DNA of 64,000 nt from Bacteroidaceae bacterium (GTDB taxonomy: Bacteria; Bacteroidota; Bacteroidia; Bacteroidales; Bacteroidaceae): the NCBI GenBank assembly GCA_045631905.1, contig JAZQVO010000038.1:1440-65439 (forward strand). The letters run 5' to 3'. Positions within the stretch are counted from its first letter, which is position 1. Each line of letters opens with the position of its first letter. Position numbers and translations under genes: made by a program. Positions 16,096 through 46,020 of the stretch are shown piece by piece. The notes below the pieces were generated by a model. That model saw nothing but the letters and a program-made list of their open reading frames with translations. It did not search any database and had not been told where the DNA came from.

Positions 16096-16106
16096 CAACC
16101 ACAAAT

Positions 16107-17276: not shown

Positions 17277-17310
17277 ATTACGAAAAAATAAAAAAACAAC
17301 ATTTTATTTT

Positions 17311-17349
17311 GAAATCTGCCACCGAGGAGCTACCTTTGTGGCAGATTTC
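17311..17349 (+). terminator. Hairpin after the symporter gene
   Basis: gaaatctgccac / gtggcagatttc forms a 12-bp stem with a 15-nt loop. It has no clear T-tract and directly abuts the riboswitch. Confidence 0.45.
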
Positions 17350-25284: not shown

Positions 25285-26166
25285 TTACAATCCCCAGTTT
25301 TTCAAGTTATATGTGGATTCTATGTCTGCTTCAAGGTCATCATCAAGTTCTGAAAAGAAATCAATCCCTGAAATAATCTCTAGGTCATCTACGCTCATCG
25401 CGCACTTCTGCATATTCTCATTGTTATTATGGTTGTACATAACAAATGCTATAGTTTGTCCTCCTGCAAAAATAGCTTTAAAGAATGCGTCTGGTACAAC
25501 AACTTTATTATTTCCTATAGCCCCATATTCATTATTCCATACAAGAGGACCAGTTACTACAGTAACACAGCCATATCGATTAGCCCACTCTCTAACCTTC
25601 TTTTCGAGAGTATTCCATTGACCTGAGTTCAGTGACTGATTCTGAGGACAACAGTTTGTATAGTAGAAAGTCTCAATCATTGCTTGATGACTCCATTTGA
25701 AATCAGCTGCGGGAGCCATGTGACCTTTCGACCATCCTGAATTTTTATAATCATAGTCGTCAGCTTGTGGAAGGTTTGCAGATGGATCTTGACAGAAATT
25801 AAGACCTTTTCTTTAATATGGCCCGTCTGTTTCGGTGGACATGAGTTCATATTTGACCCATTTGGGAATTTTGTATTTGGGATTATATATAACCTCATAT
25901 CCAGCATACGAGATTGTAGGATATTCTTTCTCCTTTATTTTTGTTGGAGTATCAATTGACGGTGTCGCATTGTTTTCCTTTGATACGTCCTTCGTCAGCT
26001 TTCTATAGTCTGCATATGCAGATATAGATTTCTTCTCTTGATTCTCCTCTATCACTAAGGTGTGAACAGAATCCTTTGTTTCAGTATTCGTATAATTGAT
26101 ACATCCGCATACAAAAGTGAGAGAAAGAATACAAGGGATGAAGTACAATATAGATTTTTTAATCAT
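25285..26166 (-). pseudogene. DNA/RNA non-specific endonuclease (NucA/EndoG-type His-Me finger) lipoprotein, interrupted by one in-frame TAA
   Basis: ORFs 25813-26166 and 25285-25719 are in the same frame. My translation across the gap reads ...STETDGPY*RKGLNFCQDPSANLPQADDYDYKNSGWSKGHMAPAADFKWSHQ...CCPQNQSLNSGQWNTLE, which contains the GH catalytic motif and the PQ..N.G.W..LE block. The N-terminus MIKKSILYFIPCILSLTFVCGC is a lipoprotein signal. Confidence 0.75.
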
Positions 26167-26899
26167 TCATTTTGATATTACCAATTATAGGAACTATATG
26201 TATCAAGAATCGCTGATTGAATTTTTCGTAGTCGCTCTTCTTTATTTCTTGGCCAACGACATATTCAGAACTTTGTTTATAGTCCTCTTCTGTAAATCTA
26301 GGCACACCACCTTCTCCACTACCACTGATTACCAATTCACACTTATCCATATTCGAGAAATCTATAGCAGCCTCTTCTTTCCAAAATCTATGTAATGCTA
26401 GTGCTCTTTGGTAACTTAGTACATCATTATTGTAATGTTCATTTGTGTAGTATCCATCAGCAGATGCTTGTCCCTCGATTACAACAAGATATTTAATATC
26501 CTGTTTGATGGATTTGTTGTTTTGTAACGAGGTTATTGTCTTCTGAATTTCTTTTCCTGCATCAACAATCTGTTTTCTTAGTTCGTTTGCAACTATGATA
26601 TTGGTTTTGTCTTCCTCTAGTTCATAAAGACTAAACTTGCCTTTTTGATATGTTACCTGTATACGGAAGATGTGCTTAACAAATTGAGGATTGAACTCAA
26701 AGTATGTAGGGTCAATATTTTCTACAACTTTGTATATAGATTGAATCTCCTCATACTTTTTTACTATTTTTTTTAGCTCCTCTTCTTTGATTCTAAACCT
26801 ACTATAAGAAACAGCAAAGAGAACCACCATAATTGCAAATAAAGTGGTCATAATATCCACATATGTGGTCCAAAATGAATCTTTATTTCTTTGCTTCAT
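26159..26899 (-). CDS. MotB/ZorB-like protein: N-terminal TM helix with a conserved Asp plus an OmpA-like peptidoglycan-binding domain
   Basis: 246 aa. FWTTYVDIMTTLFAIMVVLF resembles the MotB plug/TM segment (the W..YADfMT pattern, Asp at residue 15). VVIEGQASADGYYTNEHYNNDVLSYQRALALHRFW resembles the OmpA/MotB C-domain (the GHTD...N..LS..RA pattern). Confidence 0.75.
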   Translation of the reverse strand: MKQRNKDSFWTTYVDIMTTLFAIMVVLFAVSYSRFRIKEEELKKIVKKYEEIQSIYKVVENIDPTYFEFNPQFVKHIFRIQVTYQKGKFSLYELEEDKTNIIVANELRKQIVDAGKEIQKTITSLQNNKSIKQDIKYLVVIEGQASADGYYTNEHYNNDVLSYQRALALHRFWKEEAAIDFSNMDKCELVISGSGEGGVPRFTEEDYKQSSEYVVGQEIKKSDYEKFNQRFLIHIVPIIGNIKMND

Positions 26900-26904
26900 A
26901 ATTC

Positions 26905-28575
26905 TTATTTCTTACTGCGAAATATTGACCAAATGCTCGGTTTTTCTGAAACATCATTTGGTTGTTTAATATTTTCAGAAGACGTAGCGATCTTTTTGTT
27001 CATTGAATCTAATGCTTGTTTTACACCGTCAAGCTGTCCCAATACTTTTGAAACTTTTTCAGAAACTTCTGGCTGTGTCTTTACATCAGCTTGTATAGAT
27101 GAAAGAAGCGCAATTAACTCTGGTATTTTTCCCAAATTAGATAAATACTTATTTTGAGCCTCAAGGTCTATTGATTTACGTATTTCAGCAATATATTCAT
27201 CACGTTTTGCCTCTACAGCAGACATACATTCCTTTACAATAACTTCGTATGCAGACTTAAAATCATTCATGGCTGATGCAAAGTCATCTCCATGATTATC
27301 AATAGCTGTACAATATTTTTCGTTCAACTGTTTGATCGCTTTTGTTTGAGCCTCATATATGACTTTTAACTCATCATCTGCAAGTTCTTGATATGATACA
27401 GCAAGATCTGTTTTCTTCTGAATAGCAGTTATCTGTTCTTGAATAAGATTCATTTGGCTATTACCAAGCAATTGAGTCTGAGCGATACTTATTCCAAGCG
27501 CATTAAGAGATTCTTCAAATGTAACAATACGATTAAGAATTGTATTAATCTTTTCGAATACTCTTTCAGGAACACTCATCTGTTCAATGAATTTGGATTG
27601 TGAATCAATAAGTTTAATAGAAGAATCTGCTATTTGTTCTTTTATGTCAGACAACTTGACAATTGAAGTTGATACTGAGTCGAATTTTTCAGATGCAGTA
27701 ATGAAACTATCCAAAGTTTTCAACGTTTCTCTCTGCTTCATTGTCTTAAGCAACTGATCTTGCATTCTTACATTTTCATTGATTAGAGACATATTGTCAC
27801 CCATAGTCTCAACAGCATCGGTTAAAAGTCTTACTTTATCGCCAAAAGAATCTCTTAATGTTTCAGTACATTCATTAAAAGCATCTTTAAAATCTCCAAT
27901 AACACCCTTGAATGCTGGTTCGAAAGTGTTTATAGTTCTATGCAATTTATTAAGTGCAGAGACCATACTAGTACCTAGCACTGGCATCAACTTGACCTGA
28001 ATAAAGTCGAAAAATTTATTTTTATCCTCTTCAACTTTTTTAAGTACATTTGCTGCAGTCGCATTTCCCCACATCATAAGGACTAAGCCTATAAGGCTCG
28101 TTACCATTGATACGATAATACCACCAATCAATGCAGATACAATTTCATCTGACACACCTGCTTTATCAACGCCAATTTTGAAACTTTGAAGGCCGATCCA
28201 AACACCAAAAAATGTACCCATCAAACCCAAATAAGTTGGAAATGATACTTTTGAAGTTGCATCCTCATACAAAGCTTCAAGCCTATTCTGAACTTTATCT
28301 TTGATAATTCCAAAATCAGTTGTACCCTCATTCTTTGCCAAGTATTCGTTAATTTCGTTGACTAACTCATTAAGTTTATTAGATGAGTTACCAATCATTA
28401 TTGAATAACCTGTCTCACCTTTTTCTACCTCCCATTTTTGAGAGTTAGGGAAAAAGTTTTTGAATTTACTAAGCTTTCGCAGTGTTGGGATAAATACCCA
28501 CAACTGCAAAATTGCAAAGAATATGATAGAAATCAACGGATTACTATCCAAGAAAAGATATATTTGTTCCATCAA
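26905..28575 (-). CDS. MotA/ExbB/TolQ-family channel protein with a C-terminal helical tail of about 370 aa (ZorA-like)
   Basis: 556 aa. TM1 spans residues 12-32. PTYLGLMGTFFGVWIGLQSF and LIGGIIVSMVTSLIGLVLMMWGN match the ExbB/MotA core (YLGLfGTvwG..., GIa.AL.tTa.GL). Residues about 186-556 are charged, helix-prone and lack TM segments. Confidence 0.75.
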   Translation of the reverse strand: MMEQIYLFLDSNPLISIIFFAILQLWVFIPTLRKLSKFKNFFPNSQKWEVEKGETGYSIMIGNSSNKLNELVNEINEYLAKNEGTTDFGIIKDKVQNRLEALYEDATSKVSFPTYLGLMGTFFGVWIGLQSFKIGVDKAGVSDEIVSALIGGIIVSMVTSLIGLVLMMWGNATAANVLKKVEEDKNKFFDFIQVKLMPVLGTSMVSALNKLHRTINTFEPAFKGVIGDFKDAFNECTETLRDSFGDKVRLLTDAVETMGDNMSLINENVRMQDQLLKTMKQRETLKTLDSFITASEKFDSVSTSIVKLSDIKEQIADSSIKLIDSQSKFIEQMSVPERVFEKINTILNRIVTFEESLNALGISIAQTQLLGNSQMNLIQEQITAIQKKTDLAVSYQELADDELKVIYEAQTKAIKQLNEKYCTAIDNHGDDFASAMNDFKSAYEVIVKECMSAVEAKRDEYIAEIRKSIDLEAQNKYLSNLGKIPELIALLSSIQADVKTQPEVSEKVSKVLGQLDGVKQALDSMNKKIATSSENIKQPNDVSEKPSIWSIFRSKK

Positions 28576-28578
28576 TGA

Positions 28579-31500
28579 TTAAGCCTTATAATTGGTTAAT
28601 TGTAACAATGCATCTGTTACAGGGATAAAGAATAATGTATCGTTATATTGTTCTTGTCCAGAATACACATCAATAATTTCTGTCTGTAACTTTGAATCCA
28701 GAACATCAGCAATGCCATCATTCACAAGTTCGAGAACTTTATCAGCTACGATTTGTCCGCTCACAGCGCCTTTTCTAATTAATAGACCGAGTACTTCTTT
28801 GTAGACATTATTCATAGCCTTAATCTGGCTGATAACATTTGTCTTGATATCAGTTTTGTATTTGCTTACAAGTTCATTCACATCTTCACATTCGTATTCT
28901 GAACCATCTCCATAATACACTACAGATATAGGCTGCTGAGCGCCTTCCTTGTGATATAATCCACCATAGCAAGTACTTTCCTTGCGTATTTCAGGAAGTA
29001 CAAGCTGAATGTCGTTAATCTCTTTTCCAAAGACTCTAGACATTACTAAGTGTGTAATCTCGGTAAGGAGAGTCTCGTTTGAAGTAATATACTGATCTAT
29101 ATAACGGCTACCATTGCCACTGAATGTTATAGTTCTAGGATAGCTTAACTTTTTAGCATTGAGCATAGAAGCCAGATAGTATACTGTTGCTGTAAAATGA
29201 TACGCGAAAGCAAAAGCAAAGTCATTTCTCAGTTTATCTGCAATCTTTGTTTCAACATTGTTGCTAATCCAAAAGTTGATGATATCCTGAGTTGTACTCT
29301 CATTGTTAGAAATCATATGAGAATTTAGACTCTTCAATGAATCAGTATCAAATCCGATTGTATCCTTATATTTATTGTAGATACCATTCTTTTTTGAGTT
29401 CTTGAATTTATCGAATGCGTTGCCCCACATAACATCACAACCAAAGTGTACAGAGTTTGCAATTTTAGGCTCTCCTTTCTGGAAATATACGAAATCAGTA
29501 GATCCTCCTCCAATATCTACGATTGCAACAGACTCAACGCTCTTGTATTCATCTTTAGCGTTGAAGTAGTAATATGGCGCCTCAGACTCAGTATAGCACT
29601 TAATCTGCTCTTTTGTCGATTCAATATTAAGGATATATTTTGCTTCTTCGGTCCAAATCTTTTCAAAGGTAGCTCTCTCGGTTTCTTTGAAGCTGAGTGG
29701 TCTAAACCAAATCACTCCTGTCTTAGAAATAATACCATTTTCCTGAAGAATGTCAGCCTTGATAATCAGCAACAACTCACGAATAAATACTCTGAGACAT
29801 TTTTCATCAGAAGACCATTTGATATTTGTGATAATTCTTTGATTAGCAGCAGGCTTGCTCTTTTCGTAGAAGAAGGCAATATTGCTGTTATCAAAGAGCG
29901 AAAGTTTAGAAGCGTCCTCCCCTGTAAAACACAATGCTGTTCTGATAGGGAATCTATACGCTTTACCGTCAATGTATGGTGGCACAAACTCAGTCTTAAA
30001 TGCAGTCTTAAATACATCAGGAGTATTATTCTCCCAACATAGAACAGGATTCTGCTGAGTGGATCCAGCCTTGTCGTGCAAGTAGCTTACTATTGGCTTA
30101 TCCATAGTAAGTTGCTGCGGCTCGTTCATTTCGCCTTTCTCCTTACGGGAGATATATGTATTTGATGTACCAAAGTCTATTGCGTATTCAAACACCTTAT
30201 CAGACTGTACCGCTATATCCCAAATGGGGAATAATGCAAATGTATAGTCTTTGCTGTCAATCGTCACAGTAGCAAGAACTGCATCAAAATTTGTATTGAA
30301 TACTTCATAAAATTTAGATCCGCAATCTATATTTAATCCCTGCTGTGAGCGGACAAATGCAGGTTTAACACCACTATCAAATGTATTATCGGTTGCTGTT
30401 TCTATAATCTGAAATTTACCTTCACAATCTCGATAGAAATCCAAACTGATATTATTCGCTGTAAATGTTCTTCTATCATTACCATCAAAAGCAGAAACAA
30501 GCACCTTGAAATAATTATTCTCCTCTTTCTTTGTTGATAAGACATTAGGGAATAGTGCTAAATCAAAGTTAACTTTTGCTGTATCAAGAGATATAATTAC
30601 ACCTTCGCCACTTTTTACAGCAGAGGTCTCAGCGCGATATGTCTTTTTAAATTCTTCACCGTTATGTTTGAATATAACTTCTACTGCCTTGTTCTTCTCT
30701 TGACAAACTGCTGTTAAATCTCCTTTTCCGATTACTTCGAATGCCTGTGATGAGAGAGGTATGAGATAATCGTAGTCTCTCTTAGAATTTTCGTTTACAA
30801 ACTCCATTGTCTGGAACTTGCTAGATGACAATCTATAGGGAACCTTGATAATAGCCTCAGAAAAATAATTCAAAGATTTGAGGTCCTTGCTCGTCATCAC
30901 ATTAACGCCGTTGACCTCAATAGCACTATTGTCGTTACTATAGATCGGACTTAATGAGGTGGCTTCCCAATTAGACTTAATTTCTGGATCCGAGTGGAAC
31001 GATTGAATATAGTCTCTAAGCTCATTGTATTTTGCATCAAGGGTGTCTCCATTGCCAAACAAGAAATTATACATATAATTTTTGAAGGCAACAGGACGTT
31101 TGTCAAAAAGCTGAATATCCTGGAAGTATTTGCCTGAGCTTTCTCTGTAAATTGGCCTGAGCGTATGATAATTCTCACCAACAAAAATCATCTTTCTTGC
31201 CGATCCACCTTTCTCGTCATCCTTGACTTCTTTCAAATCCATGTCTGGTGGAGTAATGAAACCTGTAAATGGAGAACTTGTTGCAAGAAGATATTCTTTA
31301 CCGTCTTGTTCAAGAATAATGAAAAAGAGTTTCTTTTCTCCTAAATCATCATTAAAGTAGCTCTCAATTGCAGTACCGAGAATTGGCACTGCAGTTTTAA
31401 GGGTTTTCAAATCATCGTTGTAATTCCACTCTTTAATAACAATCTTAAGACCTGTACCTTGCCATAAATTCTCATGGTAATTTTTGTTATACAGCAGTTC

Positions 31501-31773
31501 GAATACGTCAAGACAGTTAGAAACAAGACGCTCATATGCACGTCCAGCTTGTTTGGTCGGGTTATTTCTTTCTTCTAAGACTCTTCTAAATGCTTCTTTA
31601 AAAATATAGAATCTTGCAAATGGGGTCGGAAGAGCATTCAATGCTCCGCCGTTATCGGTTCTTTGTTCACCGATATTTCCTAAATCTGCAGCCGTTATAC
31701 GTCCTGGACCAGCAGTCCAATTAAACTCTGATGCCGCCCCCCTTTGAATAATATTTAAATCTACACTACTCAT
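28579..31773 (-). CDS. Large protein: unknown N-terminal region of about 520 aa plus a C-terminal Hsp70/actin-fold (ASKHA) ATPase domain
   Basis: 1064 aa. AIDFGTSNT (residues 531-539, phosphate-1), ESEAPYYY (729-736), VDIGGGSTD (752-760, phosphate-2), TFSGNGSRY (883-891, adenosine-type) and ESTCYGG (932-938) occur in the canonical Hsp70/actin order. Confidence 0.65.
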   Translation of the reverse strand: MSSVDLNIIQRGAASEFNWTAGPGRITAADLGNIGEQRTDNGGALNALPTPFARFYIFKEAFRRVLEERNNPTKQAGRAYERLVSNCLDVFELLYNKNYHENLWQGTGLKIVIKEWNYNDDLKTLKTAVPILGTAIESYFNDDLGEKKLFFIILEQDGKEYLLATSSPFTGFITPPDMDLKEVKDDEKGGSARKMIFVGENYHTLRPIYRESSGKYFQDIQLFDKRPVAFKNYMYNFLFGNGDTLDAKYNELRDYIQSFHSDPEIKSNWEATSLSPIYSNDNSAIEVNGVNVMTSKDLKSLNYFSEAIIKVPYRLSSSKFQTMEFVNENSKRDYDYLIPLSSQAFEVIGKGDLTAVCQEKNKAVEVIFKHNGEEFKKTYRAETSAVKSGEGVIISLDTAKVNFDLALFPNVLSTKKEENNYFKVLVSAFDGNDRRTFTANNISLDFYRDCEGKFQIIETATDNTFDSGVKPAFVRSQQGLNIDCGSKFYEVFNTNFDAVLATVTIDSKDYTFALFPIWDIAVQSDKVFEYAIDFGTSNTYISRKEKGEMNEPQQLTMDKPIVSYLHDKAGSTQQNPVLCWENNTPDVFKTAFKTEFVPPYIDGKAYRFPIRTALCFTGEDASKLSLFDNSNIAFFYEKSKPAANQRIITNIKWSSDEKCLRVFIRELLLIIKADILQENGIISKTGVIWFRPLSFKETERATFEKIWTEEAKYILNIESTKEQIKCYTESEAPYYYFNAKDEYKSVESVAIVDIGGGSTDFVYFQKGEPKIANSVHFGCDVMWGNAFDKFKNSKKNGIYNKYKDTIGFDTDSLKSLNSHMISNNESTTQDIINFWISNNVETKIADKLRNDFAFAFAYHFTATVYYLASMLNAKKLSYPRTITFSGNGSRYIDQYITSNETLLTEITHLVMSRVFGKEINDIQLVLPEIRKESTCYGGLYHKEGAQQPISVVYYGDGSEYECEDVNELVSKYKTDIKTNVISQIKAMNNVYKEVLGLLIRKGAVSGQIVADKVLELVNDGIADVLDSKLQTEIIDVYSGQEQYNDTLFFIPVTDALLQLTNYKA

Positions 31774-31784
31774 AGCCTTATGTC

Positions 31785-33179
31785 TTAGATGGTTTTGGTG
31801 TATTCAGTTATTCCCTCGTATGCAAAATCAAGCAAATATCTCAATGTATTATCGTGCTCGGTTTTGTCCTTCTTGTTACCAGCTTCAATCATCTTAAGAA
31901 GATAGTATGATTCATCCTTCGCTTTCAAGGTAATTCCTTTCACTATATTTGAAAGCTTTTCACCTTTGAGTATTTTATTAAGCGGTGAAAAACCTCTATT
32001 GTTTTCAGATAGTTCTACATACCAATTATGGTATTGATTTACAAAAGTTTTAAGTGCCCCAAAAGGTTGGTCTTGGTAGAAATCTTTATTCAAACCTCTC
32101 GTTTTCTTCAGTGGAAAACGTCTTTCTGTTGGTAGGATATCCAAAAGCAGATCAAAAATCATCATATTAGCAATATCTTTGACCATAGGTTTATAACCTT
32201 CGCCCAAAGAGGACATATCTAGTGCATCAACATTTTCACGTATTGCCCTAGTCATTGCTTGTGGAGTATCTGGAGTCGGTCTGCCTAAGAAATCAAAAAG
32301 TGCAGATGCTGCAACTAACTCAACAAGGTGTGCCGTATCTTTCTGTTCTTTTTCATTGTTCTTATAATTTGCTCTTAAGCTTTGTTCGCCCACATAATAA
32401 AGGAAGTCAGACTTGACGCTCTTCTCATAATAGCTAAGCGCAGCCTTTGTCTTTGTATAGAAGTTTGATGAATCAATGTCACTTCCTGAGGTCGTTGGGT
32501 CATCAAGAGAGTAGTATGGCAACACTGTTACTGCTCCCATAACAGCACTCTGTACCTGAGGATGGGCTTGGTCGTCTCTAATCTTTTTCTCAAGAAGTGG
32601 ATAACCTGATGCGCCAGTTCCACCAAAAATTGAACTAATAATAAATATCCTGTCACCCTTTTCGCAGTGTCTGCGGAATGCATCGTACCAATCGGCACCG
32701 CTTATCATTTCGTTGAGAACTACTGTACCTACATTGGGGTTACCTTTAAAGCCAACCGAAAGACTATTGTTAAGATTCTCTTGTGAATATAATGTCTGAA
32801 TCAAGAATTTATTCACGTCATTATTCGCCAGTTTGCCAACATTAAGATATTGTCCGAATGTTTTTTTCTCAGCCATGCTAGTACTTACACTATTTTGCTG
32901 ATTGTCGAGATCTTCCAATCTTATAATCTTAGTATTAAAGAAGCCTGATGGAGCAGATAATTGTTGTGCTCTGTCTGTTGTCGCGTTCTTATACACTTTG
33001 ATATAGTCTCCAATTGTTGTGGTAAGGATAGCGTTCTCTTCCAAATCAACATGGGGATCTATTATAACAGGAACAATATCATAGCCGCTAGTTCTCATGC
33101 CAGCAGCTGCCATCATCACAACAGACTTCATTACGCGAAGCCCTGTGCCACCTATACAAAAAACAAAAACTTTTGCCAT
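31785..33179 (-). CDS. FtsZ/tubulin-superfamily GTPase-like protein (divergent)
   Basis: 464 aa. VFCIGGTGLRV (T1-like, residues 6-16), GFKGNPNVG (residues 143-151, compare the FtsZ T3 GAGANPEVG) and FGGTGASG (residues 185-192, compare the tubulin signature GGGTG[ST]G). Confidence 0.7.
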   Translation of the reverse strand: MAKVFVFCIGGTGLRVMKSVVMMAAAGMRTSGYDIVPVIIDPHVDLEENAILTTTIGDYIKVYKNATTDRAQQLSAPSGFFNTKIIRLEDLDNQQNSVSTSMAEKKTFGQYLNVGKLANNDVNKFLIQTLYSQENLNNSLSVGFKGNPNVGTVVLNEMISGADWYDAFRRHCEKGDRIFIISSIFGGTGASGYPLLEKKIRDDQAHPQVQSAVMGAVTVLPYYSLDDPTTSGSDIDSSNFYTKTKAALSYYEKSVKSDFLYYVGEQSLRANYKNNEKEQKDTAHLVELVAASALFDFLGRPTPDTPQAMTRAIRENVDALDMSSLGEGYKPMVKDIANMMIFDLLLDILPTERRFPLKKTRGLNKDFYQDQPFGALKTFVNQYHNWYVELSENNRGFSPLNKILKGEKLSNIVKGITLKAKDESYYLLKMIEAGNKKDKTEHDNTLRYLLDFAYEGITEYTKTI

Positions 33180-33181
33180 AA

Positions 33182-33634
33182 CTATTTGCCTAATTTAAGG
33201 AATCTGTACGCATTAGTTGATACAGGTAAATTACAGATAATAAATGATGTTATAAAATAGATAGCAGATGCGTATAACCCATTTATTAATGATATCCTCA
33301 ATATGAAACCAACTTGCTCTTTGAGAGTTGACGAAACCATCGCATTGCCTAAAATCATTGTTAACCCTATCGTAGCGACAACTGTTATTACTAACCAGAT
33401 TACCCAATGGCGTATTCTGTATTTTCTTCCTGGAAGTTTGTTGTAGCCATAATAATAATAGCAAACAACTACAACAGCAACAGCAATGGCTGTAGCAAGA
33501 AAATACATACTAGCAGAGTCAAGGCTATTCCAAAGAGATCGAGCCATATTGTAAAGAGGCTCATTATCCTTATACCTAACCAGGTGCTCAGCCTGATTTG
33601 GCAACCCCCAATCATACAAATTAAGCATTCCCAT
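33182..33634 (-). CDS. Small integral membrane protein (about 3 TM), unknown family
   Basis: 150 aa. The hydrophobic segments are YFLATAIAVAVVVVCYYYY, WVIWLVITVVATIGLTMILG and LINGLYASAIYFITSFIIC. It is separated by 2 nt from both neighbouring genes. Confidence 0.55.
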   Translation of the reverse strand: MGMLNLYDWGLPNQAEHLVRYKDNEPLYNMARSLWNSLDSASMYFLATAIAVAVVVVCYYYYGYNKLPGRKYRIRHWVIWLVITVVATIGLTMILGNAMVSSTLKEQVGFILRISLINGLYASAIYFITSFIICNLPVSTNAYRFLKLGK

Positions 33635-33636
33635 AA

Positions 33637-34920
33637 TTATTGCTTTATTTTAGATATTAATATTCTATTTGGTGTTTCATCCCAGTGATTCTGAATTGCA
33701 TTGAATACACCAGATACAAATCTATCAACAGAGAATGACCCTGTGTAATCATTCTCTGCTGTTGCAGACATTATATTAGTGAAGTCAAGCGTAACAGAGT
33801 AGTCTGGATGGTTTAATGTCCATTCAATGACATCTGATTCAGTGAACATGTTGTAAATTTTAAGTTCTACTTTCGCGGTTGCTTTTCTCTTCAATTCTTT
33901 GTTGAAATGATTGTTTACGTCGATAGAAACCCTTTCTATGCTTACTGATGAGCCGTAACATGATTTTACAGCAAGACTTTCTTTGAAAGCATCTTCGTTA
34001 GTAATTAACCAGCGGAAGTTGCTTAAGTCAATATTTAATACCACTTTACAAGTATCAGAATACTGAACATCAAAGTTTGTAAATGTAGGTTGGTCAACAA
34101 ATTGAAGAGCATTGTCTGGAATACCAAACGAATAAATTGGAGCTTTGTAGTCAAATCCAATTTCAATACAATCACCGTAATCACCATAGTCTTCCAAGAG
34201 TGTAGCAATGCTGTTTCTCATGAAAGCAACATTTTTATCCTTTCCAAGAATCAAAAAATAATAAGGGGAATCTTCTGTAAGTGTACTTCCATTAGCGGCT
34301 AAAAAATCCGATTTGGCCATGATTAAGCTAACCGCCAATCCAGGATACTTGCCAATTACATTGCGAATGTCTGTTTGATATTGTGTAAGCAAAACCTTGA
34401 CATCCTTTTGTTTTTCAGGGCTATACTTCATATCTGAAATTAGAACAGCGCATTGTCCCTCATCAAACCTTAGATTCTCTAGAATAGATTTAAGCATAGT
34501 AGGAACAAGTGTTTCTTGATTGCTCACAAAAGCACCAGAATTCATTTTTGCCCTAAAATCGTTTACAGAATATGTACCTGCAACAGTACCTGCATTAGAA
34601 AGTATGCTAACATCATTGCCTCCAAAATTGGACACTATTGACCATACGTCCTTCTTAAATCGAGTTGCTTTATTGGATCTAAAGAAACCATTCATGCTAC
34701 CACTAACCTCAACATAAAATCCGAGAGCAGAAGGTTTTTCTACAGAGAAAGACTCTTTAATAGAGTCTAGACAATATCCATCGTCTGTAAAATGTGGATC
34801 AGATACTGTGTTAACTGGGTCACAAGAAGAAAGCAGCAAAATCCCAGAGAGCATTATCAAAGCAACAGATAGCTTATTCTTAACCCTGATCAAAATACTG
34901 CAGCACATACTTAAATCCAT
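33637..34920 (-). CDS. vWA-like lipoprotein (degenerate MIDAS ExSxS) with an unknown beta-rich C-terminal region
   Basis: 427 aa. Lipobox LLLSSC (Cys33). GFYVEVSGSMNGFF at residues 67-80 resembles vWA beta1-MIDAS (DxSxS, with Glu in place of Asp). AVLISDMKY resembles the beta4 Asp segment. Confidence 0.5.
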   Translation of the reverse strand: MDLSMCCSILIRVKNKLSVALIMLSGILLLSSCDPVNTVSDPHFTDDGYCLDSIKESFSVEKPSALGFYVEVSGSMNGFFRSNKATRFKKDVWSIVSNFGGNDVSILSNAGTVAGTYSVNDFRAKMNSGAFVSNQETLVPTMLKSILENLRFDEGQCAVLISDMKYSPEKQKDVKVLLTQYQTDIRNVIGKYPGLAVSLIMAKSDFLAANGSTLTEDSPYYFLILGKDKNVAFMRNSIATLLEDYGDYGDCIEIGFDYKAPIYSFGIPDNALQFVDQPTFTNFDVQYSDTCKVVLNIDLSNFRWLITNEDAFKESLAVKSCYGSSVSIERVSIDVNNHFNKELKRKATAKVELKIYNMFTESDVIEWTLNHPDYSVTLDFTNIMSATAENDYTGSFSVDRFVSGVFNAIQNHWDETPNRILISKIKQ

Positions 34921-35327: not shown

Positions 35328-36566
35328 CTAATTCAAAAGGTAATCAAATACATTCATCATTATAATGCCATTGGGCATAGTATGCGTTGGTATGTCATCT
35401 GTTGTGATAATAATTTTTGTAAAAGAGTCGTCTGTTAGGGTTAGTGAGCGTTGTTCCTGCTTCTGTTTGTCTTCATCTGGCAAAGAATAAGCAGATTGTA
35501 TATACACCCTTTCACTACCTCTATTACAAACGAAATCAACCTCAAGTGTGGTTCTGGTAGTCTTACCTTCATCATCTTTTTGATATAAAGTAACGCAGCC
35601 TACATCTACCTTATAGCCTTTACCTATCAAATGGTTATATATGATATTCTCCATAATATGAGTAGGTTCAACTTGTCGGAAATTCAAAAGTGCATTACGC
35701 AACCCAAGATCAGCAAAATAATATTTGTAAGGAGTATCTATATACTTCTTTCCTTTAATATCATAGCGTACTGCTTTATTGATGAGGAAAGAATCAATAA
35801 AATAGTCTATATATGTTTTTATTGTATTGTGGCTTATTTTCACCTTTTTCTCACTAACAAATGTGTTTGCTAGTTTGTTGGGATTAGTCAATGCTCCTAT
35901 ATTAGATGCCAAGAGAGAGAATAATTCTTCTAATTCTGCATCATTTTTCACATTATTGCGGTCGATTATATCGCTTAAATATGTTTCTTTAAGTAACTCA
36001 TGAAGTATTTCTGCTTTTCGTGCTTTATCCTTCTCAATGACAACCATTGGTAACCCTCCATAATAAATATAATCTCGCCACAATGAAGATGTGTCATCAT
36101 TTGACTTTTCTTTTATTTCCTTAAACGATAGCGGCTGAAGGTGGATTTGAACTCCTCTTCCTCTGAATTCAGTAACGATATCAGAAGAAAGGAACTTTGC
36201 ATTACTTCCTGTTACATATACATCAAGGTTATCTATGTGTAGAAAACCATTGAGTACATCTACGAAATCCTCCAGCATCTGAACTTCGTCAATCATCACA
36301 TAATACATCTGCGAATCTTGCTTTGTCAGATTTTCGATATATTCATATAAAGTTTCTGCCTTGCGATATTTACGATGAACAAATGAGTCAAGTCTTATTT
36401 CGATGATATGGCTGGTATCAGCACCATTATCTAAAAGATGTTGTTTATAAAGGTTGAGTAGCAGATAAGATTTGCCAACACGTCGTAACCCAGTAACAAT
36501 CTTTATCAAATGATTATGCTTGCTACTTATCAACTTTTCAATGTAATGTTTTCTTTCGAATTTCAT
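35328..36566 (-). CDS. AAA-family ATPase (AAA_14 / DUF4143-type)
   Basis: 412 aa. The Walker A is GLRRVGKSYLL and the Walker B-like segment is YYVMIDEVQ. The C-terminal region is typical of DUF4143 proteins common on Bacteroides mobile DNA. Confidence 0.7.
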   Translation of the reverse strand: MKFERKHYIEKLISSKHNHLIKIVTGLRRVGKSYLLLNLYKQHLLDNGADTSHIIEIRLDSFVHRKYRKAETLYEYIENLTKQDSQMYYVMIDEVQMLEDFVDVLNGFLHIDNLDVYVTGSNAKFLSSDIVTEFRGRGVQIHLQPLSFKEIKEKSNDDTSSLWRDYIYYGGLPMVVIEKDKARKAEILHELLKETYLSDIIDRNNVKNDAELEELFSLLASNIGALTNPNKLANTFVSEKKVKISHNTIKTYIDYFIDSFLINKAVRYDIKGKKYIDTPYKYYFADLGLRNALLNFRQVEPTHIMENIIYNHLIGKGYKVDVGCVTLYQKDDEGKTTRTTLEVDFVCNRGSERVYIQSAYSLPDEDKQKQEQRSLTLTDDSFTKIIITTDDIPTHTMPNGIIMMNVFDYLLN

Positions 36567-36576
36567 ATAGATACAA

Positions 36577-36680
36577 TTTTTGTGTATTTACACAGTTTTC
36601 GTCTGCAAATATAATAGTTTAATCACAAATCAAGCACGAAACCCGAGACATTTTTTGTGTATTTACACACTTTTTGTCTG
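36577..36680. repeat. Two 29-nt direct repeats with a palindromic core, between the integrase and ATPase genes
   Basis: 36577-36605 is tttttgtgtatttacacagttttcgtctg and 36652-36680 is tttttgtgtatttacacactttttgtctg, identical at 27 of 29 positions. The core tgtgta-tt-tacaca is palindromic. Confidence 0.8.
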
Positions 36681-36692
36681 TAGTGCCATTGA

Positions 36693-37886
36693 TTACCATT
36701 CCCCCAATGCAGCCAAAATCTCACTATTGGCATTATCCACTGCTGAAGTATCAAGCGTAGAAAGGTATATAAGTGTAGTCTTTTCGGAGTCATGGCCGAG
36801 GGCATCACTGATGACGCTAATCGGAATCTGCTTCTGCTTGGCTATGCTTGCCCAGCTGTGACGAGCCACATACAATGTCAAGGGTATCGACAACTGAGCC
36901 ATTTCTCCAACCAGCCGTAAATGACGATTGATACGTTTGGATAGTTTCTTGTAAGTTTGCCTGTCATCAGCATCATTCGTGAGTATGGGCAACAAGTATT
37001 TGGTATCTTTGGGATATTTGTCGATGATAGTTTGCATCTGCTGTTCCCAACGAATATCCAATCGTCCACCAGTTTTCTTGCGATAATATGTCAAGTGTCC
37101 ACCTCGAAGATTATCATAAGTCAGGTATGCCATATCAATGAATGACATTCCTCTGAGGCCAAGACTCAACAAAAAAATATCCCTTGCATATGATAGATGC
37201 GGATATAGCCTCAAATCCAAATCCTTGATTCTTTTGATGGCATCAATATCAATTGCTCTTTTTACTGTTTGGGCAATACCCGTATATACACTTTGGAATG
37301 GAGCTACGGCTTCAACAAGATGCAATTTTACTGCTTTGTTAAGTACGGTTCTCAGCGTCCGCATATAAAAGGAAATGCTGTTCATGGTTAGGTTTCTGTT
37401 CTTTAAGTAACGTTCATAATCTTCCATGACTTCTGCTGTAATCTCATAGAGCATAATATCTTCATCGTTATTGAACTTGATGAAACTATGCAAGGCGGAT
37501 ATATATGTCTCACTTGTTCGTGTACGTCCCATATCTGCCAAACGTTCAGCTTGAGATAACAGAAAACCAGAGAAAGACTGCTGGCGATTCAATTCTTCAA
37601 ATTTAGATATAATGCATCCAAAATCTAAAGGCGTTCCTTTTTTAATATGTCGTTTGGCGATGGCATATATTTGTTGCATCTCCCAATCGGTCCGATTCTT
37701 GATTTTGATGAGTGAGCTGCTGTCGGTAAGTAATCGACCGTGTTGTTTATCCCATTCATTGGGGTAAATTCGATAACCAGATGCATAAGTGTGCGTTGTC
37801 CGCTTAATGATTATCTGGTAATAAAGCATACCATCATTACCCTTGATGGCTGAAGGACGATAACATAACTTGACTGATACTCCCAT
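36693..37886 (-). CDS. Tyrosine site-specific recombinase/integrase
   Basis: 397 aa. The N-terminal SAM-like region and the C-terminal catalytic region ARHSWASIA...ALGHDSEKTTLIYL supply the R-H-R-Y family residues. Confidence 0.85.
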   Translation of the reverse strand: MGVSVKLCYRPSAIKGNDGMLYYQIIIKRTTHTYASGYRIYPNEWDKQHGRLLTDSSSLIKIKNRTDWEMQQIYAIAKRHIKKGTPLDFGCIISKFEELNRQQSFSGFLLSQAERLADMGRTRTSETYISALHSFIKFNNDEDIMLYEITAEVMEDYERYLKNRNLTMNSISFYMRTLRTVLNKAVKLHLVEAVAPFQSVYTGIAQTVKRAIDIDAIKRIKDLDLRLYPHLSYARDIFLLSLGLRGMSFIDMAYLTYDNLRGGHLTYYRKKTGGRLDIRWEQQMQTIIDKYPKDTKYLLPILTNDADDRQTYKKLSKRINRHLRLVGEMAQLSIPLTLYVARHSWASIAKQKQIPISVISDALGHDSEKTTLIYLSTLDTSAVDNANSEILAALGEW

Positions 37887-37888
37887 AA

Positions 37889-39031
37889 TTATCTCCTCCT
37901 TCTTGATGTATTATTATCATTCTTCTTCTCTCCCCAAGGCATATCAGATGATGAGCCACCTCCACCTGTTCCAACATGAGTCTGTGCTGGACCACCTGAA
38001 AGCATCTCAAATGTAGCACCAAGCAGTTGGGCCTGAATCTGGCTCACTTGCTCAAACGGCTCAAAGATTTCATTGACCAGTTCATATTCGGTAAGCTCAC
38101 CATTCAGATACTTTTGTATAACAGGATCGTACCACTCGAAATACTTCGCATCCTCAAATGTCTCATTTTCCACCTTAGTTTGAATGCGAAGGTTTGGTAT
38201 GTTTGAATGGCGAGGCGACATGCGAATACCTGTGAGTGTTGCACCCGATGACAGGCGATATCGATGCGGATTGGCCTTTCTGTCAAGCGTGTCAATACGT
38301 TGCTTCTGCTTTTCTATGGTAGCTTCGTGAGCAATATTCTTTCGCTCGGCAATCTCGGCTCGTTTAATGGCCTTCTCAATTTCCGCCATATAACCATTGC
38401 GGTATTTCGCTAATTCTGCCTTATGTTGCTCCTTAAGTTGTAGTTGATCTTGCTCTAATTGAGCAATGCGTTGCTGTAGCTTTTCTATCTGCTTGTCCTT
38501 ATCCGATAGCTTTTTCTTTGCTTCTGCCAAATCTCCCGTACCGAAGAATGACAATATTTTGGAACGACCTTCACGTGCCTTTTCAACTTCTGCCTGCAAT
38601 CTCTCTATGTTGTCTTCATATTTCAACATCAGCTCACGATAATATTGGCCATTTGACTTATGACGGGCTGTAGAACCCACTACACCACGTTGCAAACCGA
38701 ATGGCTTCATAGCAATGGCATAGGTGTTCTGATAGTGGAACAACTTTCCACGAGCCATTACATCATCTGCGGATAATCGTGGTCCACTTTTGGTTGCATA
38801 TTTCTTGTCACCCTCACGCTCCTTGCGTCTGCGTTCTGTGGTCACGATAGGTGTGACGGTAGCATGAAGGTGAGGAGTCTTTTCATCCATGTGCAGCACA
38901 CACGATACAAGATTCTCTTCACCGAATGTATCTTTGAGCCATGACAGATTGGCCTTGATCCATTGGTCAAGTTTTCCGTCATGTTGTAGTTTCATCATCT
39001 GCTCGTGTGTTCCAGTCAGGATGATGCGAGC
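37889..39031 (-). pseudogene. MobV/Mob_Pre-type relaxase lacking its N-terminal catalytic segment
   Basis: The HMDEKTPHLHATVTPIV motif (HxDE..PHxH) sits at residue 36 instead of roughly 120. The frame is open only back to the TAG at 39034-39032 (ARIILTGTHEQMMKL...). The rest is a coiled-coil and Gly/Ser-rich tail. Confidence 0.6.
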
Positions 39032-39040
39032 CTATATCTC

Positions 39041-39700
39041 TTATGTCGAAAGCACAATAGCCCTCACAGAATCGAAATTTCTATTAGCAAGGTCCTCGGG
39101 AGCAATAAGGAAGTCGAGAACGCCAAAATCCATAAAGTTCAAATTAAAATCCATACCGCTGAAAGAATCTATTTGAAGCAAAATCTGCCACTCCTCAAAC
39201 GGCGGGTCCCATGTCTCCCACTCCCTATGAGTAGGCTCCGCAAAAAGAGCGTGGTCCTCGTGATAAATATCGGGAGCAGTCCGTTCGAACTTTATTTCAA
39301 ACTCCGAGGGATTAAGCTCGCACTCATCATCGTCAATAAGAACAGCCTCCTTAAAATCGTCGGTAACCTCCGGAAAATAGAGAACTTTCACATCTTCGGG
39401 CTCGCTTATATAACCCGATATACCGACACCATCATCGAAGCGACCAAGATAATGGTCAATCTTTGCAAAAAACGACAACAACCCCTTGTGAGGCAATTTA
39501 TTCTCCACATCGAGCTCAGCTATATCACTTAGGTTTATTTGGCATATAAACTGATACTCCCACTCCTCGCCATCTTCACCAATATAAGTAGGATAGACAA
39601 CGGGAGAAGGAAGGTCGGGGTTACCCCAAAAACGGCTACCACCCTTTTTAATCTTCTCAAAAGGCTTGCAAAGTGTAAGTCTTATAGGTTCCATAATCAT
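39041..39700 (-). CDS. DUF1963 (YwqG-like) domain protein
   Basis: 219 aa. It has SRFWGNPDLP near the N-terminus and a DFGVLDFLI block near the C-terminus, typical of DUF1963, and no signal peptide. Confidence 0.6.
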   Translation of the reverse strand: MIMEPIRLTLCKPFEKIKKGGSRFWGNPDLPSPVVYPTYIGEDGEEWEYQFICQINLSDIAELDVENKLPHKGLLSFFAKIDHYLGRFDDGVGISGYISEPEDVKVLYFPEVTDDFKEAVLIDDDECELNPSEFEIKFERTAPDIYHEDHALFAEPTHREWETWDPPFEEWQILLQIDSFSGMDFNLNFMDFGVLDFLIAPEDLANRNFDSVRAIVLST

Positions 39701-39706
39701 TAAAAT

Positions 39707-41323
39707 TTAAGCCCAAGGGTCGTTGCGCCCATCATCATCGGGGAAAGTATCACTTGTGAGCAGGTTCCCTGTAAATTCATTTATTGCATCAAACACAGCC
39801 TCAGCGTCCTCGAATGTATCGAACGAGTGGGTGTTATACTTCTTATCCTCCAAAGCAACCACCACCGCGCCCCTTATTTCGTAAGCATGACCATAGAGCA
39901 TTGTGGCAACAGGGTTGTCGGGCAGGTCTTCGAGCATCGCGTTTTTGTTTACATACATCACAACCTTTTTCTTTAACCCACACTCCTCTTTTATTCTGTT
40001 CAGCGGATCAGAAAAGTGCACAGCATCGCACCCCTCGGCATCTATGAGCTCAATAAGTTTCATGTACGAGAGGCTACGGGTTTCGGTTTCAATAAAATCG
40101 GTGAAACCCGATGGCTGTATAACCATCACCGTGGGGTTTACAGCAACAGTATCATCATCTTCTTCTTCATCTTCCTCCTTTTCGGGGTAGCAATAAAGCT
40201 CTCTCCAATAATTCAATTCATCGGCATAACCCATCTTTTTCAGCTCCTTGCTGAATTCAAGTACATGGCTGCTTAATACATTCCAAGCTTCGTAGAAAGG
40301 AGCATGGCGCACAGCCCTCAATCGTGTGAGCAACACCTCCTCTTCGGTCATATTCATCTCAGGAGACACGGCATTCCCTTTGCCATGAAAGAAGAATATA
40401 TCAAGAGCAAAGTCGTAACAAGACGAAAGCCCCATATCCATACCTATGCGTGCATACCTCAACGCCTCGATATTATCCTCTTTAAAGCCCATAATACCCT
40501 TGTAGAGGCATCTTGTGAGATAATAGGTACAAATTTTGCTTCCAAGTTCTACACCACGACGCAAATTCACGTCCAGACGTTTGTGAATTTCGTCACGGGT
40601 TTTATCATCGTAAGCGTCCCAATCATCTTCACACTCAAACCCAAGAGCAAAGCAGTCAGGAACCTCCTTCTCGATACCCTCCTCCATCAAAGATTCATAA
40701 TAAGCAATATTACCACGCTGATAATAATTGCAGGCAAGGTCAAAGATAGAATATTTCAACCCCCTATCAACACACTCCTCATATGTGGCAATAGCATCGT
40801 TCAATCTCCCTCTATTCTCGTAGAACCAAGCCAACTGCTCCAACCAAAGCACCGAAGCACCCGGTTTTTGGGACATCTCCTTTGTCTGCTTTATGAGGTA
40901 GCTGACATCTTTTTTCAAACGCGCTCGGTAATAGAAACGCTCGATTATGCTTTGCATCTTGGCAAGCTCACTACCCAGCAACTTGGCTTTTCTCAAAAGT
41001 TTATCGTACAATTTGCGGTCCAACCGCGTTATCCCCTCATCGTCTATGTAATCGCCTAGATAATATAACCTCGACAACATATATAAAGCATCGGCTATGC
41101 CGTTTTTCGCAGCAAACTCATAGCAATCACGCACTATGCGTAAATTTTCCTTGTTATGCGCACCTGTCACATACAACCAGCAACCATACAAATACTTGCT
41201 GTAAGCATCTTCGCCGGCACGAAGCTTTTCCACTATCTGTGGCGAGAGGAAGAAAAAATCCCTCTTATCGTAAAATTTCTCCAAAATCTCTTTTCCTGGA
41301 ATTATTTCAAAATCGGCAATCAT
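39707..41323 (-). CDS. Sel1-like repeat protein with a C-terminal DUF3846-like domain
   Basis: 538 aa. There are Sel1-type repeats (AAKNGIADALYMLSRLYYLGDY...), an acidic linker (EEDEEEDDD) and a C-terminal MVIQPSGFTDFIE...VMYVNKNAMLEDLPDNP block. Confidence 0.45.
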   Translation of the reverse strand: MIADFEIIPGKEILEKFYDKRDFFFLSPQIVEKLRAGEDAYSKYLYGCWLYVTGAHNKENLRIVRDCYEFAAKNGIADALYMLSRLYYLGDYIDDEGITRLDRKLYDKLLRKAKLLGSELAKMQSIIERFYYRARLKKDVSYLIKQTKEMSQKPGASVLWLEQLAWFYENRGRLNDAIATYEECVDRGLKYSIFDLACNYYQRGNIAYYESLMEEGIEKEVPDCFALGFECEDDWDAYDDKTRDEIHKRLDVNLRRGVELGSKICTYYLTRCLYKGIMGFKEDNIEALRYARIGMDMGLSSCYDFALDIFFFHGKGNAVSPEMNMTEEEVLLTRLRAVRHAPFYEAWNVLSSHVLEFSKELKKMGYADELNYWRELYCYPEKEEDEEEDDDTVAVNPTVMVIQPSGFTDFIETETRSLSYMKLIELIDAEGCDAVHFSDPLNRIKEECGLKKKVVMYVNKNAMLEDLPDNPVATMLYGHAYEIRGAVVVALEDKKYNTHSFDTFEDAEAVFDAINEFTGNLLTSDTFPDDDGRNDPWA

Positions 41324-41350
41324 GGTTTTTATAAATCATCAGGGTTAATA

Positions 41351-41917: not shown

Positions 41918-41921
41918 ATCG

Positions 41922-42708: not shown

Positions 42709-46020
<3,312 letters not shown>

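Follow-up and report, generated by a model that had tools for sequence, protein, structure and literature searches.

According to the 2010 comparative study of Makarova and Koonin (PMC2875224), all characterized members of the FtsZ/tubulin superfamily polymerize. The same study described a divergent group, FtsZl1, in which the T6-H7 region was not identifiable, the C-terminal domain was without similarity, and filaments might not form. These proteins were described with a coiled-coil domain, and a role in membrane remodeling or vesicle biogenesis was argued from their gene contexts. The main text mentions only "OmpA-like" proteins among FtsZl1 neighbors. Additional file 5 of the paper tabulates, for Deinococcus, a protein of 421 to 478 residues, a protein of 108 to 109 residues, an FtsZl1 protein of 1,070 residues, a MotA/TolQ/ExbB protein of 411 residues, and an OmpA/MotB protein of 200 residues; for cyanobacteria, it tabulates a vWA (von Willebrand factor A) protein, FtsZl1, a "B7" protein of 524 to 549 residues, and a COG1360 "flagellar motor protein". 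In a later survey (PMC9871819), the Pfam family Tubulin_2 is equated with FtsZl1 and serves as a divergent outgroup. Here, we describe a tubulin-like gene, g3, from a Bacteroidaceae bacterium, together with the operon of six genes (g1 to g6) in which it stands third. The operon lies in a 64,000-nucleotide stretch of contig JAZQVO010000038.1 (assembly GCA_045631905.1, positions 1,440 to 65,439 of the forward strand); we call this whole stretch the window and number all window coordinates from its first letter.

Two further kinds of described system bear on this locus. Structural work on Zorya distinguishes three types, whose partner proteins are ZorC/D, ZorE, or ZorF/G. Kaur, Burroughs, Iyer, and Aravind (2020; PMC7159879) predicted that systems combining a tubulin with vWA or HSP70 modules act as nucleoside triphosphate (NTP)-dependent conflict systems, and they proposed that homologs of division proteins in such systems may work by binding rather than by catalysis. 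The operon in the window shares parts with each of these. Its genes follow one another on the minus strand in the order g1-g2-g3-g4-g5-g6, with intergenic gaps of 2 to 11 nucleotides (2 nucleotides on either side of g2, toward g1 and g3):

33637..34920, minus strand: g1, exported lipoprotein of 427 residues and first gene of the operon, with a signal peptide and the lipobox LLLSSC
33182..33634, minus strand: g2, small integral membrane protein of 150 residues, with three hydrophobic helices by hydropathy
31785..33179, minus strand: g3, tubulin/FtsZ-superfamily GTPase-domain protein of 464 residues, with an ATG start and a helical C-terminal domain
28579..31773, minus strand: g4, cytoplasmic protein of 1,064 residues, characterized by profile and Pfam matches and by an AlphaFold2 model of its N-terminal half
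26905..28575, minus strand: g5, ZorA/MotA/ExbB-class membrane protein of 556 residues, with weak matches to Pfam MotA_ExbB and NCBIfam ZorA_2
26159..26899, minus strand: g6, ZorB/MotB-class protein of 246 residues with an OmpA-like peptidoglycan-binding C terminus (PADLOC ZorB, E = 6.8e-11)

We gathered 84 related loci from metagenomes and from one genome per species and searched these loci with iterated hidden Markov models (HMMs) of each window protein. The homologs of g1 to g6 always lie on one strand and in one order, with g1 directly upstream of g2/g3 and g4 directly after g3. Homologs of g1 and g2 are each present in 82 loci, g4 in 83, g5 in 71, and g6 in 65. The complete g1-g2-g3-g4-g5-g6 order was found in 58 of the 84; the remaining loci are cut by contig ends, contain a split or duplicated open reading frame (ORF) call, or have no detectable g5/g6. 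The hosts are Bacteroidales, Sphingobacteriales, Flavobacteriales, Cytophagales, Chitinophagales, and Saprospiraceae, and the few loci labeled as Firmicutes or E. coli bins are probably mis-binned contigs. Collectively, these data identify g3 as a fixed member of an operon of six genes that spans the envelope. Among the more distant complete loci, many have one or two additional genes inserted between g4 and g5, all of one family of membrane-anchored, coiled-coil-like proteins of 200 to 470 residues (for example, 7513-8463 in locus L041 and 14863-17327 in locus L081), one member of which has a Big_2 domain. The window has no such gene, nor does its clade, in which the ZorA-like proteins are longer instead.

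The initial annotation of this DNA had placed a divergent FtsZ/tubulin-type gene at 31785-33179 and had read three nucleotide-binding loops from it. The coordinates and the length of 464 residues stand, with a correction of the strand: the gene lies on the minus strand, and the plus strand of this interval is riddled with stop codons. The loops were found in order at the residues claimed, both in the sequence and in the family alignment:

33141..33158, minus strand: T1 loop CIGGTG, residues 8 to 13
32727..32753, minus strand: T3 loop GFKGNPNVG, residues 143 to 151
32604..32627, minus strand: T4 signature FGGTGASG, residues 185 to 192

For conservation, we aligned 74 representative relatives that are 29 to 54% identical to the window protein. 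The glycines of all three loops are invariant. G10, G11, and G13 of T1 (T12 is present in 96%), G143, F144, G146, P148, and G151 of T3, and G186 to G189 and G192 of T4 occur in 100% of these relatives, as do R15, D41 at the T2 position, D176, P221-Y222 at the T5 position, Q279, and E287. Such invariance across relatives this distant means that the T1, T3, and T4 motifs are strongly selected and did not arise by chance. By hydropathy, g3 has no transmembrane segment. It is a soluble cytoplasmic protein that keeps the T1-T5 GTP-binding loops, with an intact nucleotide pocket, and is predicted to bind GTP. Homologs are numerous: 3,025 of the candidates scored fall at E ≤ 1e-3, and a library at 50% identity holds at least 1,891 representatives of the family at that threshold and 1,458 at E ≤ 1e-10. 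The 90% cluster that contains g3 has 692 member sequences, and members of the family abound in Bacteroidales of the gut and the rumen.

Placement in the superfamily rests on family-level profiles and on the predicted fold. The Pfam family Tubulin (PF00091) matches g3 itself at E = 2.2e-4 with 22 bits, short of the 33-bit gathering score, and Tubulin_2 (PF13809) does not match it at E ≤ 1. At E ≤ 0.01, PF00091 is matched by 68 of the 74 relatives and PF13809 by 63. The best PF00091 score among ten individually scored relatives, 27.4 bits, is likewise below the gathering score. The 27-bit cutoff of PF13809 is passed by relatives P0134 (31.6) and P0142 (27.6) and by a Gloeothece plasmid homolog (40.7), which matches the g3-family HMM at E = 3e-52 and is named "tubulin-like domain-containing protein" by NCBI. 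The PF13809 matches of the relatives are limited to the T4 region, at approximately positions 140 to 235 of the 356 in the profile. The comparison with Tubulin_2 that had been proposed for this gene thus gave matches for most relatives, above the cutoff for only some of them, and none for the window protein; g3 belongs to the superfamily, but judged by the thresholds of the two Pfam families it is not demonstrably a member of either. A phmmer search of the Protein Data Bank (PDB) with the single g3 sequence returned only noise, with FtsZ chains at E = 0.5 to 1.7. The g3-family profiles gave one marginal match to PDB sequences, 3zid, "tubulin/FtsZ GTPase" (E = 1.2, then 0.0058), in the T4 region; the T4 signature is aligned there to the GGTG of the 3zid and FtsZ chains, and also to Pfam Tubulin positions 79 to 140. 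An hhalign comparison of the g3 profile with an E. coli FtsZ sequence (E = 0.054, probability 1%) set T3 opposite LGAGANPEVG and paired T4 correctly; we take it as a lead only and do not count it as evidence.

The predicted fold agrees with the profiles. We built an AlphaFold2 model of g3 from 53 homologs (predicted local distance difference test score [pLDDT], 83.6; predicted template modeling score [pTM], 0.85) and compared it with the PDB using Foldseek, which gave 120 matches at E ≤ 1e-3. The top 50 were all tubulin or FtsZ, with E values from 5e-6 to 4e-4, a probability of 1.00, and template modeling scores (TM-scores) of 0.41 to 0.43 when normalized to FtsZ chains of ~300 residues; among the top matches were beta/gamma-tubulin, FtsZ from E. 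coli, K. pneumoniae, M. tuberculosis, and S. aureus, and the Odinarchaeota tubulin. In a viral structure library (BFVD), phage tubulins/PhuZ came out on top. From the sequence profiles and the model together, we assign g3 to the FtsZ/tubulin superfamily with high confidence, in line with the initial annotation. Within the superfamily, we place it in a separate subfamily of shorter proteins that borders on FtsZl1/Tubulin_2. This large, mainly Bacteroidota family has no name, and its nearest described relatives are the FtsZl1/Tubulin_2 proteins.

The C-terminal half had been judged not to resemble FtsZ, and inspection of a structural model for a T7-loop equivalent had been suggested. In our model, residues ~322 to 461 form a helical bundle that replaces the C-terminal sheet domain of FtsZ and tubulin, and an insert of ~75 residues separates H2 from T3. 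Neither in the 74-relative alignment nor in the model could we identify a conserved acidic loop of the T7 type, which bears out the earlier judgment. Past S6, the conserved polar positions are E/D265, Q279, N/D281, H284, and E287, followed by the C-terminal motif W386-x-x-E389; among acidic residues, conservation is seen at E265, E287, and E389. Column 310 of the alignment holds Glu in 62 of the 74 relatives and Thr in the window protein. More broadly, residues 310 and 311 (nucleotides 32247 to 32252) are Glu-Phe/Tyr across the family, and the gut Bacteroidales clade of the window has Thr or Ser there with an invariant Arg next to it. This site follows the helix past S6 and could bear on inter-subunit catalysis. 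Polymerization of g3 is conceivable, and we consider it somewhat less probable than its absence.

The largest partner of g3 is g4, which comprises an alpha/beta domain (residues ~40 to 345), two immunoglobulin-like beta-sandwiches (~350 to 515), and an ATPase domain of the actin/MreB/Hsp70 fold (ASKHA; ~525 to 1064). A profile of 31 homologs matches MreB (7bvy; E = 8.4e-5), FtsA, Ppx, actin, and Hsc70, and Pfam finds Ppx-GppA in 19 of these homologs and FtsA in 6. The phosphate loops D533-x-G535-T536 and D753-x-G755-G756 are invariant. An AlphaFold2 model of residues 1 to 520 (pLDDT, 82.6) had two-domain Fab light chains as its top Foldseek matches, and that search gave no clear PDB counterpart for the first ~300 residues. 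Residues 48 to 54 of g4 (approximately nucleotides 31612 to 31632) contain the motif P-[ST]-P-[FW]-A-R, read as ALPTPFARF in the window; the motif is invariant from Bacteroidota to two cyanobacterial plasmid loci, L090 and L091 (SIPSPWARP and SVPTMWARP), and falls in a part of g4 to which no fold could be assigned. In g1, the lipobox cysteine (Cys33) is invariant, and E71-x-S73-G74-S75-M76-x-G78 and S162-D163 are near-invariant, a pattern like the metal ion-dependent adhesion site (MIDAS) of vWA domains. A cyanobacterial homolog has the canonical DGSGSM, and UniRef names the Sediminicola homolog "VWFA domain-containing protein". Thus, judging by these residues, g1 probably carries a vWA domain with a MIDAS-like site.

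The last two genes encode the motor. In g5, three hydrophobic helices are followed by a proline-poor, helical cytoplasmic tail of ~360 to 380 residues, and the membrane motifs PLYLGLMGT..G and AM..S..GL.LT are conserved. The closest matches of its profile, in the membrane part, are type I ZorA from Shewanella (8VVN_C; E = 9.3e-6) and ZorA from E. coli (8qyy; E = 7.4e-4); in the same PDB profile search, the tail matches only coiled-coil proteins. In g6, a single transmembrane helix carries an Asp (D15) that is conserved in at least 90%; Pfam MotB_plug and OmpA match weakly. The g6 profile matches type I ZorB near full length (8VVN_B; E = 2e-12), E. coli ZorB (8QYD_F; E = 1.7e-6), and flagellar MotB (6ykp; E = 7e-4). 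The MotAB-type motor noticed beside g3 in the initial annotation is therefore a genuine MotAB-class stator, and it is specifically ZorAB-like, because g6 matches PADLOC ZorB models and the best PDB relatives are type I ZorAB proteins, although the NCBIfam scores fall far short of the Zorya cutoffs. That annotation had recorded the motor and missed the rest of the six-gene operon, with its actin-fold ATPase and vWA-like lipoprotein. It had also called the linkage of a tubulin to MotAB unusual. The linkage is not without precedent, however: Additional file 5 of PMC2875224 already lists it for both Deinococcus and cyanobacteria, so it is recurrent in the FtsZl1 branch, if never discussed.

Set against these described systems, the locus shares elements with each and coincides with none. 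FtsZl1 proteins of the PF13809 type resemble g3 in their divergent GTPase domain, in the large inserts between T1 and T4, and in having no recognizable T6-H7/T7 region or FtsZ C-terminal domain. Their genes also adjoin vWA genes and, in Deinococcus and cyanobacteria, MotA/ExbB-like and MotB/OmpA genes; the operon of g3 holds a probable vWA gene and a ZorAB-like pair. However, FtsZl1 proteins in the 2010 neighborhood table have ~900 to 1,200 residues and a coiled coil, whereas g3 has 464 residues and a compact helical bundle, and only the g3 locus has a dedicated 1,064-residue partner with an actin-fold ATPase. With the canonical proteins FtsZ, tubulin, CetZ, TubZ, and PhuZ, g3 shares the fold of the GTPase domain and the T1-T5 loops. 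It differs from them in its low identity (~11 to 17%), in having neither FtsZ_C nor Tubulin_C and no recognizable NxDxxD/E T7 loop, and in a context that is not a dcw, partition, or phage-nucleus setting.

The likeness to Zorya, in which ZorA and ZorB form a 5:2 stator, lies in the stator and the setting. Like ZorA, g5 has three transmembrane helices and a long helical tail, with the best solved relatives from Shewanella (8VVN) and E. coli (8QYD); g6 shares with ZorB the plug, the transmembrane Asp, and the peptidoglycan-binding domain; and both the operon and Zorya are located in mobile or defense islands. In contrast, PADLOC found no homologs of ZorC, D, E, F, or G, and the partners are instead a tubulin-like GTPase, an actin-fold ATPase, a vWA-like lipoprotein, and a small membrane protein. 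The GAP1-N2 systems of Kaur et al. (2020) likewise combine a tubulin-superfamily protein with a vWA or an HSP70/actin-fold ATPase. These systems are centered on a GAP1/DO-type TRAFAC GTPase with FNIII (fibronectin type III) and come from Firmicutes and Actinobacteria, and no MotAB/ZorAB module is mentioned for them, whereas the g1-g6 operon contains no GAP1/DO-type TRAFAC GTPase. In the published literature that we searched, we found no link between a Zorya or ZorAB-like protein and a tubulin homolog, no further named Zorya types, no description of the Bacteroidota g1-g6 system, and no paper containing the locus tags of the Deinococcus or cyanobacterial FtsZl1 genes. Among the Bacteroidetes passages of the 2010 supplementary list that we consulted, none shows the architecture either. 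As far as these searches reach, what is new is the architecture of the system as a whole; the superfamily assignment and the tubulin-stator linkage are of a known kind, FtsZl1-type proteins in vWA/stator operons.

Beyond g6, the related loci vary. One or more accessory genes come directly after g6, and the stop codon of one gene often overlaps the start codon of the next:

13 loci: DUF4357 protein, cytoplasmic, without a lipobox signal peptide
12 loci: Endonuclease_NS protein, on the same strand
11 loci: Trypsin_2 protease
9 loci: retropepsin-like aspartyl protease
5 loci: SNase
5 loci: EEP nuclease/phosphatase
3 loci: DnaJ-like protein
25285..26166, minus strand, in the window: seventh gene, lipoprotein Endonuclease_NS (non-specific DNA/RNA nuclease), interrupted (Pfam E = 6.8e-35 on the 3' ORF)

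Every accessory nuclease and protease has a lipobox signal peptide, and no DUF4357 protein does. A variable set of enzymes at the 3' end is typical of conflict systems. The Endonuclease_NS gene of the window starts within g6, overlapping its stop by 8 nucleotides, and is broken by a single premature TAA at codon 118 (nucleotides 25813 to 25815). A tblastn comparison with the uninterrupted gene that follows g6 in locus L085 gives 41% identity along the whole length, and intact orthologs stand behind the operon in 12 related loci; the window copy may be a pseudogene, possibly a recent one, or reflect a sequencing error. The trypsin-like and retropepsin-like lipoproteins, although unrelated enzymes, share a basic stretch after the lipobox cysteine, roughly C-S-(R/K)-S-G-R-(K/R) (for example, in L056, 18296-19036; L058, 18318-18845; and L054, 11204-11716). 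This shared stretch may be a common sorting or docking signal.

The operon lies inside a block of 33 to 38% GC (~24 to 38 kb) in a window that is otherwise 44 to 51% GC. Beyond g1, this region continues as follows:

35328-36566, minus strand: AAA_14 and DUF4143 ATPase of the PADLOC candidate defense family PDC-S01 (E = 6.6e-115)
36693-37886, minus strand: tyrosine integrase of Bacteroidota type (Pfam Phage_int_SAM_5 and Arm-DNA-bind_5)
37889-38998, minus strand: Mob_Pre relaxase (Pfam)
36693-42320, minus strand: island cargo and mobility block as a whole, comprising the integrase, the Mob_Pre relaxase, a DUF1963 protein, and a MORN-repeat protein

The GC block, the integrase, and the nearby relaxase agree with the mobile island proposed in the initial annotation, and no dcw or ftsA neighbors of g3 are present in the window, as had also been stated. 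Two proteins of the 36693-42320 block, of 538 and 188 residues, have no Pfam match. We considered PDC-S01 as a part of the system and rejected it, as it is adjacent to the operon only in the window and in 2 of the 84 loci (L001 and L002, which are near-identical copies); the gene is probably an independent neighbor. Between the PDC-S01 and integrase genes lies a 36-nucleotide direct repeat (36570-36605 and 36645-36680; 89% identical, 75 nucleotides apart), which might serve in regulation or recombination. We looked for att-type direct repeats at the borders of the island and found nothing convincing. The island is flanked by the housekeeping gene secA and by a glycoside-hydrolase-like gene. 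The adjoining secA (42709-46020, plus strand) has a counterpart in L001 (1-3199), an unrelated locus, where it lies no more than 5 kb from the operon; this may mark a shared insertion hot spot or be a coincidence.

Besides the window, we inspected eight other distinct contexts of the operon, and mobile-element, defense, or DNA-helicase/methylase genes adjoin it in all eight:

WYL protein and PDC-S01
UvrD-like helicase and D12 methylase
McrB-like AAA_5 protein, DNA methylase, and PDDEXK protein
integrase, ArdA, and type I restriction-modification genes
Abi_2 and transposases
Tra genes of a conjugative transposon
HepT/MNT, HigB-like toxin-antitoxin genes, VapE, and PIF1 helicase
RecQ

Homologs of g1, g3, and g4 also occur together on the two cyanobacterial plasmids (Gloeothece, L090; Picosynechococcus, L091), where a small membrane protein with four transmembrane helices takes the position of g2. 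A ZorAB-like pair was not detectable in either of these loci; in its place are coiled-coil proteins anchored by a signal peptide or transmembrane segment and a TM2-domain protein. The genes g1 to g4 are an ancient core, and the stator is a lineage-specific addition that is nearly constant in Bacteroidota.

What does this operon do? On balance, and by a modest measure, we lean toward an overall picture in which it would be a Zorya-like, envelope-spanning, mobile defense system with a tubulin-like GTPase. We infer a role in defense, which we hold to be marginally probable, from the analogy with Zorya and from the conflict-system logic of Kaur et al. (PMC7159879). In such a system, the peptidoglycan-anchored stator (g5 and g6) and the periplasmic vWA lipoprotein g1 would register a perturbation of the envelope, for instance when a phage injects its DNA. 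Through the long helical tail of the ZorA-like g5, the signal would pass inward to the cytoplasm, where the tubulin-like GTPase g3 and the actin-fold ATPase g4 would assemble at the site in a nucleotide-dependent manner, as a threshold or scaffold. The output would come largely from the exported hydrolases in the periplasm. A more specific version seems to us tentative and on the unlikely side: that the operon would be an unrecognized Zorya-like trans-envelope immune system of Bacteroidota, with a stator-less form on cyanobacterial plasmids. In this version, prokaryotic homologs of tubulin and actin would build a hub whose assembly depends on nucleotides; the ZorAB-like motor, driven by protons, would couple the hub to the envelope together with the vWA lipoprotein in the periplasm, and lipoprotein nucleases and proteases would kill or block outside the cytoplasm.

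Several observations weigh against a defense system of this kind or against individual parts of it. The candidate nuclease and protease effectors are exported lipoproteins, unlike the cytoplasmic ZorC, D, and E, and exported lipoprotein enzymes are equally compatible with a role in secretion or vesicles. Many copies of the operon are chromosomal in free-living Bacteroidota, with no obvious defense neighbors among those that we looked at. On cyanobacterial plasmids, the g1-g4 core is found with no detectable ZorAB-like pair, so the stator is not universally required. NCBIfam ZorA and ZorB score g5 and g6 at only 15 to 19 bits, with cutoffs of 100 to 400, and PADLOC has no model for g1 to g5, with only its ZorB models touching g6. 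The probable vWA domain of g1 has no Pfam or PDB profile match, even for the cyanobacterial homologs with DGSGSM. The Foldseek TM-scores of g3 are modest (0.25 to 0.43), because only the GTPase domain superposes. Since g3 has no identifiable T7-type catalytic loop, polymerization-coupled GTP hydrolysis may not occur.

The strongest alternative, which we judge unlikely, is a machine for membrane remodeling or export. Here, the tubulin- and actin-like NTPases and a Tol/Exb-like stator would deform or energize the envelope and release or activate the lipoprotein hydrolases; outer-membrane vesicles might be loaded in this way, for nutrient scavenging or interbacterial competition rather than for phage defense. 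Stators of the MotA/ExbB/TolQ class energize outer-membrane processes, as in Tol-Pal, TonB, and GldLM, and g5 and g6 are of this class. The lipoprotein signal peptides of g1 and of all nuclease and protease accessory proteins would fit such a machine, as would the pairing of the g1-g4 core with membrane-anchored coiled-coil proteins on the cyanobacterial plasmids, and the FtsZl1 study argued for the same role from similar contexts (PMC2875224). However, the operon is found repeatedly in mobile elements beside restriction-modification, Abi, toxin-antitoxin, and McrBC-like genes; its stator is closest to Zorya ZorAB and not to TolQR or ExbBD; its variable 3' effectors recall conflict systems; and the cytoplasmic DUF4357 protein stands in place of an exported enzyme in 13 loci.

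A different proposal concerns mechanism only and is compatible with the defense reading. The tubulin fold of g3 could serve as a non-polymerizing switch, a GTP-dependent regulator or adaptor for g4 and the stator tail that forms no filaments and carries out no T7-mediated hydrolysis; in a variant, g3 would act as a decoy by binding tubulin of phages or proteins related to division. The lack of a recognizable T7 acidic loop and the C-terminal domain unlike that of FtsZ are in its favor, as is the replacement of the common Glu by Thr/Ser in the window subfamily. It also has precedents in FtsZl1, which lacks a recognizable T6-H7 and might not form filaments (PMC2875224), and in the proposal that division-protein homologs in conflict systems bind rather than catalyze (PMC7159879). 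We nevertheless regard it as unlikely, given that all characterized members of the superfamily polymerize (PMC2875224) and that the strictly conserved E287, Q279, W386, and E389 could supply an unconventional inter-subunit contact.

Two further candidates fall away. The best-known non-division tubulins are the TubZ and PhuZ proteins of plasmids and phages, and a cytoskeleton of this type, in which g3 polymers move or maintain the island or a plasmid, would fit the phage tubulins among the viral Foldseek matches and the homologs on cyanobacterial plasmids; it is highly improbable and essentially excluded, because g3 is locked together with lipoprotein, membrane, and stator genes in more than 80 mostly chromosomal loci, no TubR-like DNA-binding adaptor or centromere repeats adjoin it, none of 50,697 phage records contains a homolog, and the C-terminal tail and T7 loop of TubZ/PhuZ were not identified in it. 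A cell-division paralog of FtsZ was rejected, as g3 has no dcw context and lies in an accessory island.

No branch of the tubulin/FtsZ superfamily is more divergent than the FtsZl1/Tubulin_2-type proteins, and we found no experimental study of them in the literature 16 years after their prediction. g3 offers a tractable entry to this branch, as its family is abundant, the protein is compact at 464 residues, and a fixed operon encodes it beside an ATPase of the actin fold and a ZorAB-like stator. If the operon acts against phages, new partners would be added to the Zorya principle, this branch of tubulins would gain its first function, and there would be an example of immunity effectors that act in the periplasm. 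If its work lies in vesicles or export, the operon would be informative on the sorting of lipoprotein hydrolases in Bacteroidota. In both cases, the outcome would also show whether a tubulin fold without a recognizable T7 loop can polymerize, and the architecture would surprise specialists in phage defense and in the prokaryotic cytoskeleton alike.

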